Assembly (NCBI GenBank): GCA_034666665.1
Contig: JAXDLK010000005.1
Span: forward strand, 1-59,036
Direction of reading: 5' to 3'
Length of the DNA: 59,036 nt
From: Candidatus Binatota bacterium
GTDB taxonomy: Bacteria > Desulfobacterota > Binatia > JACPRU01
Under the pieces are notes generated by a model. That model was given only the letters and a program-made list of their open reading frames with translations. It searched no databases and was not told the DNA's origin. Below, piece by piece: positions 28,059 through 32,173 of this stretch; position 1 is the first letter of the stretch, and each line of letters starts with the position of its first letter. Both the position numbers and the translations under genes were made by a program.

Positions 28059-29997
28059 GCAGCTTCTCGGCTTCCGCGAGCGCCAGGCGCACGACGAAGA
28101 CGGTTCCGGCGCCCCTCGCCGGATCGTGGAGCTCGAGCTCGCCGCCGTTCTCGCGGACGAGATCGTGGCAGAGCGACAGCCCGAGCCCGGTGCCCTTCTC
28201 GGGGGGCTTGGTCGAGAAGAAGGGCTCGAACACGCGCTCCCGGAGCTCGACCGGAACGCCGGCGCCGTCGTCTTCCACGCGAAGCTCCGCGAAGCCGGCG
28301 ACGGGGAGCGTGCGCACGGTCACCCGCCCTCCTCGGTCGATTGCGTCGAGCCCGTTCAATGTCAGGTTCAGGAGCACCTGCTTCAACTGCTCCGGATCGG
28401 CATCCACCCACAGTGGCTCGCTGGCGACCGCACCCGCAAGATGCTTGCCGCCGATCCGCGAGTGGTTCGCGAGAAGCTCGAGGACCTGTCGCGCGACGTC
28501 GTTCACGTCCATGCGGCGCTTCTGGGGTGATTTGCTGCGGGCGAAGTTGAGGAACTTCTGCACGATCGTCTTCAGCCGGTCGACCTCGTCGACGATCAAT
28601 CGCAGGTGTCCCGGGAAATCGGTGAACGAGGGTTCCGCCGCGAGCCGGGGGTCGGCCGCGCGGTCGAGGAGCCCCTCCGCGAATCCCGAGAGGATGCCGA
28701 GGGGATTGTTGATCTCGTGAGCGACGCCGGCGGCGAGCCGTCCGACCGCGGCCATGCGGTCCTGCCGGATCAGCATCTGCTGCGCGTCGGCGAGCTCTCG
28801 CGTTCGCACCTCGACCTTGCGCTCGAGCTCGTCGTTCCACCGTCGCAGCGTCTCGAGCAGGCGGCGGTTCTCGGCGAGCGCGTCCTCGAGCGCGGAGGTC
28901 CGTTCCCGCACCATCTCCTCGAGGTGGGCCGTCAGCTCGCGAAGCTCGCCGATCCGCTCCTTCAACGATCGGCGCATCGATTCGAACGCGCGCGTCAGCT
29001 CCTCGACTTGCGCGCCGCCGCTCGGCGGCGGCAGCGGCGCGTCGTAGTTCCCCGCCCCGAGCTCGTGGGCAGCCACGGCGAGCTCCGAAAGCGGCCGGGC
29101 GACGGAGCGTGTCAGCAAGAAGCCCGCGGCCAGCGCCGCGAGAAAGACGAACCCGGCCGTCAGCACCAGCCGGCGCTCGAGCGCGCGGAGCGCGAGGGCG
29201 TCGGGCGAGAGCGAGCGCAGGATCGCATACGCTCCGACCGGCTTCGGCCCGATGCCGACGAAAGGCCGGACGACCAGCGCCGGCGCCTTGCCGTGGAGCT
29301 CGACCTCGCCGTACGCCGGACGCACGCCCTCGACGCGCCCTGCGAGATCGGAGATGGCGGCCCGCTCGTGAGGCGAAAGCTCGCGAGAGGAGGCGACGAC
29401 GTCGCTGCCGACGAGGAACGCGATGTCGTTTCCCGACAGCAGCGAGAGCTCGGTGGCGAACCGGCCGTCGACGCGGAATCCCACGCTCAGCGTCCCGGCG
29501 AGGCCGGTCGGCAGCCGCAGCGGCACCGAGACCATCTGGTAGAGCTTGTCTTCGTGGATCCACATGCTGCTCGCGCGCTCGCCGCGGAGCGCCCGAGCGA
29601 CGCTGGTGGTCTCGTCGAAGATGTCGCCGAGCTCCCAGCGGCGGTCCGAGCGGCCGAGGATCACCCCCGAGCGATCCGTGATCAGCACCACCTCGGAGCC
29701 GACGAGACGGTTGATCTCGCGCGAGGCGTACTCCAGGAACGGCGGGTCCCACGTGTGTGCCGGCTCGTGGAGGACCGGCAGCCGGGTTACCAGCGACGCC
29801 GCGGTGATCAGCGCGTTCGCCCGCGTATCGAGCAGCTCGTCGAACACCCGCTGCGCGGTCTCGAGCTCGTCGCGAACCGTTTGCCGCACCTGGTTCGTGA
29901 CGTGCCAATCCACGAGCCACAGCGAGCCGATCAAGGTCGCCGCCACGAGCAGACCGAAGTATCCGAGAATGCGGCCTTGGAAGCCGATCCGGCTCAC
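28045..29997 (-). CDS. Sensor histidine kinase with a large periplasmic sensor domain and HAMP
   Basis: GTG start. It has a TM helix, a ~270-aa periplasmic domain, a second TM helix, HAMP and a coiled coil. The H-box is AAGVAHEINNPL and the HATPase boxes are DDGAGVP and GTGLGLS. It overlaps the RR gene by 14 nt. Confidence 0.88.
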   Translation of the reverse strand: MSRIGFQGRILGYFGLLVAATLIGSLWLVDWHVTNQVRQTVRDELETAQRVFDELLDTRANALITAASLVTRLPVLHEPAHTWDPPFLEYASREINRLVGSEVVLITDRSGVILGRSDRRWELGDIFDETTSVARALRGERASSMWIHEDKLYQMVSVPLRLPTGLAGTLSVGFRVDGRFATELSLLSGNDIAFLVGSDVVASSRELSPHERAAISDLAGRVEGVRPAYGEVELHGKAPALVVRPFVGIGPKPVGAYAILRSLSPDALALRALERRLVLTAGFVFLAALAAGFLLTRSVARPLSELAVAAHELGAGNYDAPLPPPSGGAQVEELTRAFESMRRSLKERIGELRELTAHLEEMVRERTSALEDALAENRRLLETLRRWNDELERKVEVRTRELADAQQMLIRQDRMAAVGRLAAGVAHEINNPLGILSGFAEGLLDRAADPRLAAEPSFTDFPGHLRLIVDEVDRLKTIVQKFLNFARSKSPQKRRMDVNDVARQVLELLANHSRIGGKHLAGAVASEPLWVDADPEQLKQVLLNLTLNGLDAIDRGGRVTVRTLPVAGFAELRVEDDGAGVPVELRERVFEPFFSTKPPEKGTGLGLSLCHDLVRENGGELELHDPARGAGTVFVVRLALAEAEKLRARA

Positions 29998-30067
29998 GTT
30001 TGGGGAAGTATAGGAAGCGGCTCCCGCCGGCGCAATTCGCCCGGCGCGGGGCGCTTCGCGCCGATCG

Positions 30068-30472
30068 TCAGCCGCCGGTGCCGCCGGATTCTTCCGCGGT
30101 CGCGCGGCGGGCGCAGTCGGTGATGTCCGACAGCTTGGATCCGGGTCCGAAGACGCCGGCGACGCCGAGCTCGCGCAGGCGCGCGGCGTCCTTCCGATGC
30201 ACGATTCCGCCGACGAGCAGTGGAACGCCGTCGAGCCCGATCGCCTGCATTTCCGCGATCAGACCGGTGACGACCTCGACCGGATCGCGGTCCATGATGC
30301 GGAGCGCGATCAGGTCGGCGTCTTCCTGCGCGGTCGCGGCGGCGATCTCCCGCGGGAGCTGCTGCCCGGTGACGATCACCTCGAAGCCGGCGTCACGGAG
30401 GGCCTGGGCGACGACGTAGTATCCGGCGGTGTGGCCGCGGGTGTCGCTCGCTAAGAGCACGCGACGAGTCAT
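30068..30472 (-). CDS. Cobalamin-binding small subunit of an acyl-CoA mutase (variant His loop)
   Basis: By eye it aligns with IcmB and the MutB C-terminus (ALRDAGFEVIVTG, QEDADLIAL, LLVGGI). The loop reads TRGHTAG where the canonical motif is DGHDRG (DxHxxG). Confidence 0.75.
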   Translation of the reverse strand: MTRRVLLASDTRGHTAGYYVVAQALRDAGFEVIVTGQQLPREIAAATAQEDADLIALRIMDRDPVEVVTGLIAEMQAIGLDGVPLLVGGIVHRKDAARLRELGVAGVFGPGSKLSDITDCARRATAEESGGTGG

Positions 30473-30535
30473 CGCCCGCTCCGGAAGAGCGGATGACGAA
30501 TGCCGGCGGAGAACGACAGGGCGTTCATCGCCGGG

Positions 30536-32173
30536 TCAATAGAGGCGGATCATGAACCCGCCGCGCTTGCGGAGCTCGGTCTCGCCGGCGACCGCGGCCA
30601 GGGTCTCCACGATCTCGCCGATCGACAGATATGCTTCCGCGGCTTCGAGCGTCGGCTCGACGATCGGTTCGCGCAGCCGGTACGCTTCCGCGAGCCGCCG
30701 ACGCGCCGCCTCGGCCCCGCCCGGATCCCGTTCGCGCTTCACGCGCTCGAGGCGCCGGATCTGCTTCTCCCGCCACGCCGGATCGTAGTCCGGCTCGGCG
30801 CGGTGCGAGACGGGGCCGAAGGAAGGCTCCTCCTCGTCCTCCTCGACGAAACAGTTGACGCCGACCACGGGCCGGCGGCCGTCGTCGATCTCGAGCTGAC
30901 GCCGGTAGGCGGCGTCACGCGTGCACGCGCTGATGTGTCTCCATGCCCCCTCGGCGGAGAGGCGACCGAGCTCCGCGAAGATCTCCCGGGCGCGGGATTC
31001 CAGCTCGTTGGTGAGCACTTCGATGGCCCAGGAGCCGCCGAGCGGATCGGCGACGGCGGTGACGCCGGACTCGAGCTGGATGATCTGCTGGGTGCGGACC
31101 GAGAGCGTCTGCGCGAGCTTCGAGGGAATCGTGAAGGCCTCGTCGAAGGCGTTCACCGACATCGATTGCGCGCCGCCGAGCGCCGCCGCCAGCGCGTGCA
31201 GCGTGGCGCGGACGACGTTGTTCAGCGGCTGCTGTGCGGTGAGCGCCACGCCGGATGTCTGGACGTGGAAGCGGAGCTGACAGGCGCGGTCGTCGGTCGC
31301 TCCGAGCCGCTCGCGCATGATCCGCGCCCACATCCGCCGGACGGCGCGGAACTTCGCCACTTCCTCGAGGAAATCGCTCTCCGCGTTCAGGAAGAACGTC
31401 AGCCGCCGCCCGACGCGGTTCACGTCGGCGCCGCGCTCCTTCGCCGTCGCTGCGGCGTACCAACCTTCGTACAGGCCGAAGGCGATCTCCTGTGCCGCGC
31501 TGATCCCGGACTCGCGGGTGTTGCGCACCGAGATCGAGGTGTGGTTCCAGCGCGGCAGGTGCTTCGCGCAGTACTCGATCACGTCCACGTAGTGGTTGCC
31601 GGAATACTTCGGCGGCTCGCCCCACGGCAGCACGTAATTCTGGATCGTGCCGGAGAGATCGGCGAGCGGGATTCCGCGTCGCTTCGCGGTCGCGAGGATC
31701 ATGCAGAAGGCGGGGATCGAGTTGCCGGTCTGGTTGATGCTCGTGCGCTCGATCGGCACCTCGCGGAAGACGAGATCGACGTCGTCGAGGGTGTCGACCC
31801 AGACGCCGCCGCGACCGACGAGGCCCGCCGCCCGCGGGTCGGACGACTCGAAATGCGCGTAGCCGAGTCCCGTCAGGCTGATGCCGGTCTGCCCCTCTCG
31901 CAGCAGGTAGCGCAGGCGCTCGTTGGTCTCCTCCGCGGTGCCGAGTCCCATGACCTGGCGAACGGTCCACTTGCGCCCGCGGTAGCCGGAGGGTCGCGTG
32001 CCGCGGGTGAAGGGATATTCGCCGGGGTTGCCGAGGTCGCGACCGTAGTCGAGCTCTGCGACGTCGGCCGGCGAGTAGAAGGACCCGAGCTCGACGCCGG
32101 AGGTCGTGACGTGTGCCGGAGGCGTTCGACCCGTTCCGTCCCGCGAGTCACTCACCGCGACCGAGGCTCGCAA
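30536..32173 (-). CDS. Methylmalonyl-CoA mutase family large subunit, strongly divergent
   Basis: Motifs seen: GEYPFTRG, SGTIQN, FLEEVAKFRAVRRMWA, HVQTSGVALTAQQPLNNVVR and SMSVNAFDEA. The start is uncertain (TTG 32173 or GTG 32155) and there is no clear SD. Confidence 0.8.
   Translation of the reverse strand: MRASVAVSDSRDGTGRTPPAHVTTSGVELGSFYSPADVAELDYGRDLGNPGEYPFTRGTRPSGYRGRKWTVRQVMGLGTAEETNERLRYLLREGQTGISLTGLGYAHFESSDPRAAGLVGRGGVWVDTLDDVDLVFREVPIERTSINQTGNSIPAFCMILATAKRRGIPLADLSGTIQNYVLPWGEPPKYSGNHYVDVIEYCAKHLPRWNHTSISVRNTRESGISAAQEIAFGLYEGWYAAATAKERGADVNRVGRRLTFFLNAESDFLEEVAKFRAVRRMWARIMRERLGATDDRACQLRFHVQTSGVALTAQQPLNNVVRATLHALAAALGGAQSMSVNAFDEAFTIPSKLAQTLSVRTQQIIQLESGVTAVADPLGGSWAIEVLTNELESRAREIFAELGRLSAEGAWRHISACTRDAAYRRQLEIDDGRRPVVGVNCFVEEDEEEPSFGPVSHRAEPDYDPAWREKQIRRLERVKRERDPGGAEAARRRLAEAYRLREPIVEPTLEAAEAYLSIGEIVETLAAVAGETELRKRGGFMIRLY

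Follow-up and report, generated by a model that had tools for sequence, protein, structure and literature searches.

A candidate two-subunit B12-dependent acyl-CoA mutase of a distinct Arg-Asn type in a Candidatus Binatota genome

What does a coenzyme B12-dependent acyl-CoA mutase do when the residues that explain the catalysis of the textbook enzyme are replaced? This question is raised by two adjacent genes on contig JAXDLK010000005.1 of a Candidatus Binatota bacterium, analysed here over its 59,036 nucleotides (the window). Both genes are on the minus strand. One of them (30536..32173) encodes the large, substrate-binding TIM-barrel subunit, which has 545 amino acids (aa) when started at TTG 32173 and 539 aa in the database gene call (P0001), where the start is GTG 32155. 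The other (30068..30472) encodes the small cobalamin-binding subunit of 134 aa, with an ATG start and a GGAG Shine-Dalgarno box 6 nt before it. The database label of the large subunit is methylmalonyl-CoA mutase (MCM). With a probability of roughly 0.6, we take the pair to be a working two-subunit adenosylcobalamin (AdoCbl)-dependent acyl-CoA mutase from a distinct clade, the Arg-Asn type. Its substrate is probably a CoA ester outside the range of the mutases studied so far. To our knowledge, only about six substrate specificities of B12 acyl-CoA mutases are known. Each new specificity opened a pathway (ethylmalonyl-CoA, 2-hydroxyisobutyrate and methyl tert-butyl ether (MTBE), pivalate), and some of these enzymes became biotechnological tools. 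The clade differs at exactly those residues on which the explanation of catalysis in the textbook enzyme rests, and it bears on how essential His244, Tyr243 and the Asp-His cobalt relay are.

Active-site residues of the two subunits

The large subunit matches PF01642 over profile positions 2-512 of 512 (E = 4.5e-141) and TIGR00641 with 425.7 bits (cut-off 303.8). The AlphaFold2 model (predicted local distance difference test, pLDDT, 80.9; predicted template modelling score, pTM, 0.86) is aligned by Foldseek with both human MCM and 2-hydroxyisobutyryl-CoA mutase (HCM) at a template modelling (TM) score of 0.86, the range for MCM being 0.84-0.86. The small subunit matches PF02310 (E = 8.1e-16) and TIGR00640; its closest solved relative is 2yxb, a "coenzyme B12-dependent mutase" (E = 3.2e-23). 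It is predicted to bind cobalamin.

The large subunit was aligned by HMMER to MutB of P. shermanii (5req_A), human MCM, M. tuberculosis MCM and HCM (4r3u), with the residue numbering anchored by the Phe of 5req_A, which is the Y89F mutant of MutB. The initial annotation, made by eye, claimed that Tyr89, Arg207, Tyr243 and His244 of MCM are all changed. Rigorous HMMER and MAFFT alignments restore none of the four, and the same substitutions are seen in the HMMER alignments to five solved chains and in two MAFFT alignments. Misalignment was thus rejected as an explanation. The window coordinates of all motifs were confirmed by translation.

Four segments of the substrate pocket are altered. Firstly, RQ-Y89-AGF of MCM becomes RQ-V74-MGL (RQVMGL, 31943..31960, minus strand, as are all motifs below). 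The residue at position 89 is Phe in isobutyryl-CoA mutase (ICM), Ile in HCM and Val in the window protein, and Val74 is invariant in 114 clade members. Secondly, the family-wide segment S-x-A-F-D-L-P-T is replaced by SLTGLGYAHF (31850..31879). Here LSVAFDLPTHRGY of the reference aligns with ISLTG--LGYAHF, so that the FDLPT motif is gone; the alignment agrees with the earlier reading of TGLGYA for AFDLPT and adds a deletion of two residues. G-x-G-Y is invariant in the clade, whereas the A, F, D, P and T are conserved at 85-96% in the Tyr-His type mutases. Thirdly, in TIQNYVLPWGEPPKYSGNHY (31589..31648) the T, Q and N are kept, and the loop that carries Arg207 in MCM or Gln in ICM and HCM is shortened by seven residues. 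The gap in TIQNYVLP-------WGEPP spans E203-T209, including Arg207, which bears out the deletion proposed around this residue, and the shortened loop is without any conserved basic residue. In MCM, Tyr89 and Arg207 hold the substrate carboxylate. Finally, SISG-Y243-H244-MQEAG of MCM corresponds to SISVRNTRESG (31505..31537), with Arg217 and Asn218 at the positions of Tyr243 and His244. Arg217 is conserved at 100% and Asn218 at 97% in the clade, compared to 98% for Tyr and 96% for His in canonical sequences. Arg220, Glu221 and Gly223 are kept, the latter two aligning with Glu247 and Gly249 of MCM.

The remaining part of the catalytic centre is retained. The large subunit contains the H328/Q330 motif FHVQTSG (31250..31270), the D369/E370 motif FDEA (31136..31147), R87 and T195/Q197/N198, as well as PFTRG and EVAKFRA; together with TIQN and HxQTSG, the latter two had already been listed as preserved fold markers and all were found in the alignments. 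Conservation in the clade is 100% for R87, T85, T195, Q197, N198, N236, F287, H328, Q330, Q361, S362, N366, D369 and E370, and R283 is likewise conserved as in true mutases. In MCM, the fully conserved residues of this list are contacts of the CoA tunnel or of the adenosyl and corrin groups; R87, T85, T195, Q197, R283 and F287 are on the CoA side, and Q330, D369 and E370 on the adenosyl side.

The small subunit was considered in the same way, by comparing 57 partner subunits from the clade with nine canonical ones. The canonical pattern K-G-L-D-G-H-D-R-G-A ... S-x-L-S-G-x-H corresponds to x-D-x-x-G-H-T-x-G-Y ... R-x-M-D-x-x-P in the clade. In the window protein, DTRGHTAG within SDTRGHTAG (30422..30448) stands for GLDGHDRG, and LRIMDRDP (30281..30304) occupies the site of S-x-L-S-G-x-H. 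The presumed cobalt ligand His14, Gly17 and Gly88-Gly89 are invariant in all 57 sequences. The conserved changes are G10D, A18Y, S58R (the Ser of SxL), S61D and H64P, where Asp10, Tyr18, Arg58 and Asp61 are invariant and Pro64 is present in 96%. Thus the full DxHxxG ... SxL ... GG motif is absent, the Asp being replaced, the Ser being an invariant Arg, and the Leu being Met. The initial annotation pointed to RGHTAG in place of DxHxxG. The loss of the Asp holds; the Arg is particular to some members, as this position is Pro, Ser or Arg in relatives, and the change in SxL has to be added. The DxHxxG Asp and the SxL Ser tune the His-Co bond and the pocket of the nucleotide tail. Given the pattern of conservation, the cobalt site of the small subunit looks rewired, not decayed.

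In several relatives (P0038, P0040, P0044, P0046, and L006:8567-11581), found in Binatia-type and "delta proteobacterium" metagenome-assembled genomes (MAGs), the small subunit is fused N-terminally to an Arg-Asn large subunit, making a protein of 674 aa. The order of domains is that of IcmF, without the G-protein. The natural fusions in some Binatia-type relatives confirm that the two subunits act together.

The best solved relative of the large subunit is HcmAB of Aquincola tertiaricarbonis (4R3U; E = 2.8e-100, about 38% identity, TM score 0.86). Both pairs have a large subunit separate from a B12 subunit of about 135 aa, both contain EVAKFRA, HxQT and DEA, and the residues at position 89 are aliphatic in both (Ile90 of HCM, Val74 here). 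However, HCM retains FDMPT with Asp117 in its TDFDMPT segment, where the window protein reads LTGLGY, as well as the full Gln208 loop and Gly-Tyr-His, all of which are lost or replaced in the window protein, and HcmB retains DGHDRG and SxL, which the small subunit of the window does not. MCM (MutB, 1REQ/5REQ; human MMUT, 2XIJ) shares with the window pair the fold, R87, T195/Q197/N198, H328/Q330, D369/E370 and the predicted His-on binding of cobalamin by a Rossmann-like domain. The window pair differs in that Tyr89 is replaced by Val, the Arg207 loop is deleted, Tyr243 and His244 are replaced by Arg and Asn, and the B12 domain resides on a protein of its own. Of the MCM partners of His610, the position of Asp608 is variable in the clade and that of Lys604 is not conserved as Lys. 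ICM and IcmF have Phe at position 89 and Gln at 207, where the window protein has Val and a deleted loop. TY(A/S)GH and Tyr-His of the ethylmalonyl-CoA mutase (ECM) MeaA are both missing from the window protein.

Phylogeny and distribution of the Arg-Asn clade

A common signature, namely RQV[MV]G, G[LM]GY, a short TIQN-x-V-x-P-x-G loop, S[VA]RN-x-R[ED] and FHVQT, was found in all 120 best homologues (54-79% identity) from a search of 5.8 billion proteins, and also in the 71 loci that were fetched. When 114 clade members were compared with 102 Tyr-His sequences, 28 sites proved to be conserved in each group but different between them, and 66 columns were invariant in both. There is a gap in similarity around the clade: among 1.84 billion representatives at 50% identity, one full-length sequence scored 622 bits, and the next full-length one scored 414 bits at 45% identity.

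Trees were constructed from 90 rows and, more carefully, from 38 rows, with HCM, MCM, ICM-like and ECM-like references. The Arg-Asn clade has support 100/100. The two sister lineages, P0125 with Arg-Asn and P0132 with Arg-Cys, are unassayed and have a shortened 207 loop as well. Across a branch with support 95/98 lie HCM (4r3u), the MCMs of human, M. tuberculosis and P. shermanii, ICM-like sequences with RQFAG/AQKEW, and an ECM-like paralogue from the same genome (contig C323). All sequences of the Tyr-His type fall outside the clade. A tree constrained to unite the clade with HCM is worse by 87 log-likelihood units (approximately unbiased (AU) test, p-AU = 5e-5). Membership in the HCM, MCM, ICM-like and ECM-like groups was thus rejected by the trees, with the AU test concurring for HCM. 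The initial claim that the residue set is unlike MCM, ICM and HCM fits this position outside the characterised types in the tree.

Other branches of PF01642 without the Tyr-His pair (Tyr-Asn, Tyr-Asp, Arg-Cys) are on the same side of the 95/98 branch as the clade. However, they have less than 45% identity to the window protein and differing pocket residues. The Tyr243-His244 pair is kept in only 56 of the 150 nearest representatives at 50% identity (P0121-P0270); among the 150, Tyr-Asn occurs in 17 and Tyr-Asp in seven, and many others differ in further ways. Since 94 of these representatives lack Tyr-His, its loss in the window protein is less exceptional than it had first seemed. Judging by these residues, unassayed pocket types are common in the PF01642 family in metagenomes.

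The named hits all come from MAGs, which belong to Chloroflexota/Dehalococcoidia, Binatia, Rokubacteria, NC10, Nitrospinae, Thermodesulfobacteriota and "Deltaproteobacteria". The clade is common in metagenomes of soil, groundwater and sediment, mostly in uncultured phyla, and the label "methylmalonyl-CoA mutase" in databases distorts metabolic reconstructions of these phyla. The taxonomic spread is patchy. In the GTDB phylum of the window genome, an Arg-Asn mutase is carried by 11 of 401 sampled genomes, ten of them from one other family, and by none of the sampled genomes listed in the same class as the window genome. We found no cultured organism with an Arg-Asn mutase, no relative above 42% identity among the PLSDB plasmids, no exact copy of the window protein on record in public contigs, and, in a literature search for the V/Arg-Asn signature, no paper describing it.

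Possible reaction and alternative explanations

The gene context was considered in a set of 71 Arg-Asn loci dereplicated to 29 lineages. A contig scan with patterns from the query's own peptides had yielded two Arg-Asn loci, and a metagenome scan about 57 more. Within 6 kb, the genes that recur in the 29 lineages encode acyl-CoA dehydrogenase (ACAD, 9 lineages), short-chain dehydrogenase/reductase (SDR, 6), enoyl-CoA hydratase (ECH, 6), SCP-x thiolase (5) and a TetR regulator (5). Apart from the small subunit, these five are the only recurrent neighbours. Since the only recurrent neighbours are beta-oxidation genes, the substrate is probably a branched, alpha-substituted or carboxylated acyl-CoA. 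That the pocket has acquired an invariant Arg suggests that this substrate bears a group which is anionic or strongly polar, and the dicarboxylate-type transporters, CoA-transferases and dehydrogenases without the catalytic Glu that are found nearby point to such a group too.

The reaction could proceed as follows. The CoA thioester would be bound in the barrel, and homolysis of the Co-C bond would produce the 5'-deoxyadenosyl radical, which would abstract a hydrogen from the substrate. A 1,2-shift of the carbon bearing the thioester would follow. In place of His244, Arg217 and Asn218 may polarise the thioester carbonyl or anchor a substrate group that is anionic or polar, and the two shortened pocket loops may accommodate a substituent for which there is no room in MCM, ICM and HCM. 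The mutase step would then remove the block that a branch, an alpha-substituent or a carboxyl group on the acyl-CoA poses to beta-oxidation.

A more specific version of this scheme is offered tentatively, and we consider it possible but somewhat doubtful. The enzyme may catalyse a B12 carbon-skeleton rearrangement that is not yet in the enzyme list, in which the acyl-CoA is bulky or alpha-substituted and its carboxylate, or another anionic group, is bound by the Arg in place of Tyr243. The cobalt would be tuned by the rewired His-on site, where Asp10, Arg58 and Asp61 take over from the Asp/Ser/Lys network. This could be the missing step for beta-oxidation of branched or dicarboxylic acids in uncultured bacteria of soil and sediment, the substrate in the present case being derived from a hydrophobic compound hydroxylated by the P450 of the same operon.

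Several points weigh against a working acyl-CoA mutase. We know of no characterised acyl-CoA mutase in which Tyr243 and His244 are not conserved. Moreover, His244 mutants of MCM were reportedly strongly impaired (Maiti 1999; Thoma 2000). Because of this, Asn at the His244 site may mean a different chemistry. In the small subunit, both the DxHxxG Asp and the SxL Ser are lost. The AlphaFold2 model is weak, with low confidence, in the active-site loops 303-307 and 336-343. The MeaB chaperone was not detected in the genome, which is 84% complete. Beyond the subunits, the context varies between loci (TRAP transporters with PrpD-like proteins, CoA-transferases, luciferase-like proteins, nitroreductases), and no single pathway emerges. 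Finally, no biochemistry on any member of the clade was found in the literature.

One possibility, which we regard as unlikely, is that the pair is a B12 radical enzyme with other chemistry. It could involve a different migrating group, an elimination, a non-CoA pantetheine substrate, or a cobamide whose lower ligand or tail is not the usual one. Indeed, both residues presumed to act in the migration of the carbonyl are replaced by the invariant Arg-Asn, all four pocket segments are rebuilt, and the sister lineages also have Arg-Asn or Arg-Cys. The positions D12, S58, L60, S61 and H64 of the small subunit, which normally contact the His ligand or the dimethylbenzimidazole tail, are all changed in a conserved way. 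However, the CoA-side and adenosyl-side residues listed above are conserved, and the neighbours are enzymes of CoA esters. The initial annotation left the choice between a new substrate class and a non-mutase function. The former fits all the sequence evidence; the latter is less likely, because the predicted contacts to CoA and AdoCbl and the cobalt His are invariant, fusions exist, and the neighbours belong to beta-oxidation.

It is still less probable that the large subunit is a non-catalytic paralogue similar to MutA, the beta subunit of MCM, or that it belongs to a B12-sensing or regulatory protein. Such a role would agree with the absence of several hallmark residues from both subunits, and some loci (L004, L102) have another mutase large subunit adjoining. 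However, the replaced positions are invariant in more than 110 sequences, where relaxed selection would leave variation; as the invariance extends across the clade in both subunits, the replacements do not look like decay. Moreover, an own small subunit with the His ligand is always present, most loci, including that of the window, have no canonical partner nearby, and catalytic subunits are matched far better (E = 1e-70 to 1e-100) than MutA (E = 1e-19 to 1e-21).

That the protein is an ordinary MCM, ICM, HCM/RCM, ECM or pivalyl-CoA mutase (PCM) whose residue losses are artefacts of alignment, as its database name and its closeness to HCM among solved structures might suggest, is hardly credible, since four independent HMMER alignments and both MAFFT alignments agree on the substitutions, the equivalog cut-offs are widely missed (359.8 bits against 876 for the MCM model NF006944, and 152.6 against 1500 for the IcmF model NF045497), and the tree, with its MCM, HCM, ICM-like and ECM-like references, and the AU test for HCM place the protein outside these types, with all Tyr-His sequences on the other side.

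Gene neighbourhoods

In the window, the order of genes is DUF35, SCP-x thiolase, CYP107-like P450, mutase large subunit, mutase small subunit. The closest solved relatives of the thiolase are the SCP2-thiolase type-1 and then the benzoylsuccinyl-CoA thiolase subunit BbsB (E = 3e-61). No promoter or terminator matches were found between the P450 gene and the end of the small-subunit gene, and the mutase is probably co-transcribed with the P450, the SCP-x thiolase and its DUF35 partner. About 70 nt past the small subunit, on the same strand, there is a gene for a sensor histidine kinase (start 29997), and no terminator match occurs in 29997-30068; this kinase and an NtrC-type regulator may be co-transcribed with the mutase operon. 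Neither a cobalamin riboswitch nor any other Rfam RNA was found in the window.

The ACADs of the Arg-Asn loci are unusual. The catalytic Glu of the YEG motif is missing in 17 of 17 open reading frames (ORFs) from six lineages, which have GPI, GDG, SAG, IGG, YLG or VDG, whereas [YGF]EG is present in 40 of 41 ACADs beside canonical mutases. One further Arg-Asn lineage has an ACAD with GEG, but this gene is 6 kb off on the other strand. In the ACAD of L157:3200-4357, and likewise in L152, L153, L140 and eight more metagenome loci, all with the ACAD in one operon with the mutase, TetR and ECH genes, I-G-P-I-T stands at the site of I-Y-E-G-T, so that the usual proton-abstracting Glu is missing. Deviation from YEG is described as characteristic of dehydrogenases whose substrates are branched, bulky or alpha-carboxylated (PMC8360864). 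The association with Glu-less ACADs is a lead only, and related loci are not independent.

By context alone, the most similar system is IaaGH from the iaa operon of Aromatoleum aromaticum, a split B12 mutase converting phenylsuccinyl-CoA to benzylmalonyl-CoA, which works beside a family III CoA-transferase and an ACAD without the catalytic Glu (IaaF, GGG motif) (PMC8360864). The Arg-Asn loci similarly have Glu-less ACADs, and L088 contains three family III CoA-transferases together with a molybdopterin oxidoreductase. However, the GGG dehydrogenase of the IaaF type was found in none of the fetched loci, and the iaa pathway is anaerobic, whereas the window operon contains a P450.

Other loci are diverse. 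The operon of L107 consists of ECH, acyl-CoA ligase, ACAD, ECH, SDR, mutase large and mutase small genes. In the sub-clade L140, L152, L153, L157, the TetR gene, the mutase pair, ACAD and ECH occur in varying order. The L101 and L103 lineages have tripartite ATP-independent periplasmic (TRAP) transporters, PrpD/MmgE-like proteins and a GntR regulator. In L101:3055-18884, from one family in the phylum of the window genome, the mutase lies between a TRAP transporter (DctM with three tandem ORFs of about 337 aa upstream) and a block of Usp, GntR, ECH, PrpD-like, acyl-CoA ligase and PrpD-like genes. In L103, the mutase pair is followed by an enoate/dienoyl-CoA reductase of the old yellow enzyme (OYE) type and a FAD_binding_2 dehydrogenase.

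In a Chloroflexota MAG (L003:10001-13764), the two mutase genes are separated by a gene for a luciferase-like monooxygenase and one of the nitroreductase family. A nitroreductase gene follows the mutase pair in L005, and luciferase-like genes recur near several other loci. L102:9164-13466 has two mutase pairs in tandem, the Arg-Asn pair and a different one that is also non-canonical; the small subunit of the latter reads GLDGH, as in canonical mutases. In L004:7923-12106, a Tyr-His large subunit without its own small subunit precedes the Arg-Asn pair. A MeaB gene is adjacent in three of 41 Arg-Asn loci and in ten of 65 canonical ones, a comparison without informative value.

The window genome (3.6 Mb) encodes a PduO-type adenosyltransferase, CobS and CbiB, and is thus provided with functions for cofactor supply. 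It has a second mutase on contig C323 (12640-14106; L002:970-2976, minus strand). This is a fused protein of 668 aa, which by its TYSGH, SYHLQEAG and canonical GLDGHSNG motifs looks like an ethylmalonyl-CoA mutase. Its neighbours are an ORF for an ABC1/UbiB-like kinase and an acyl-CoA dehydrogenase gene.

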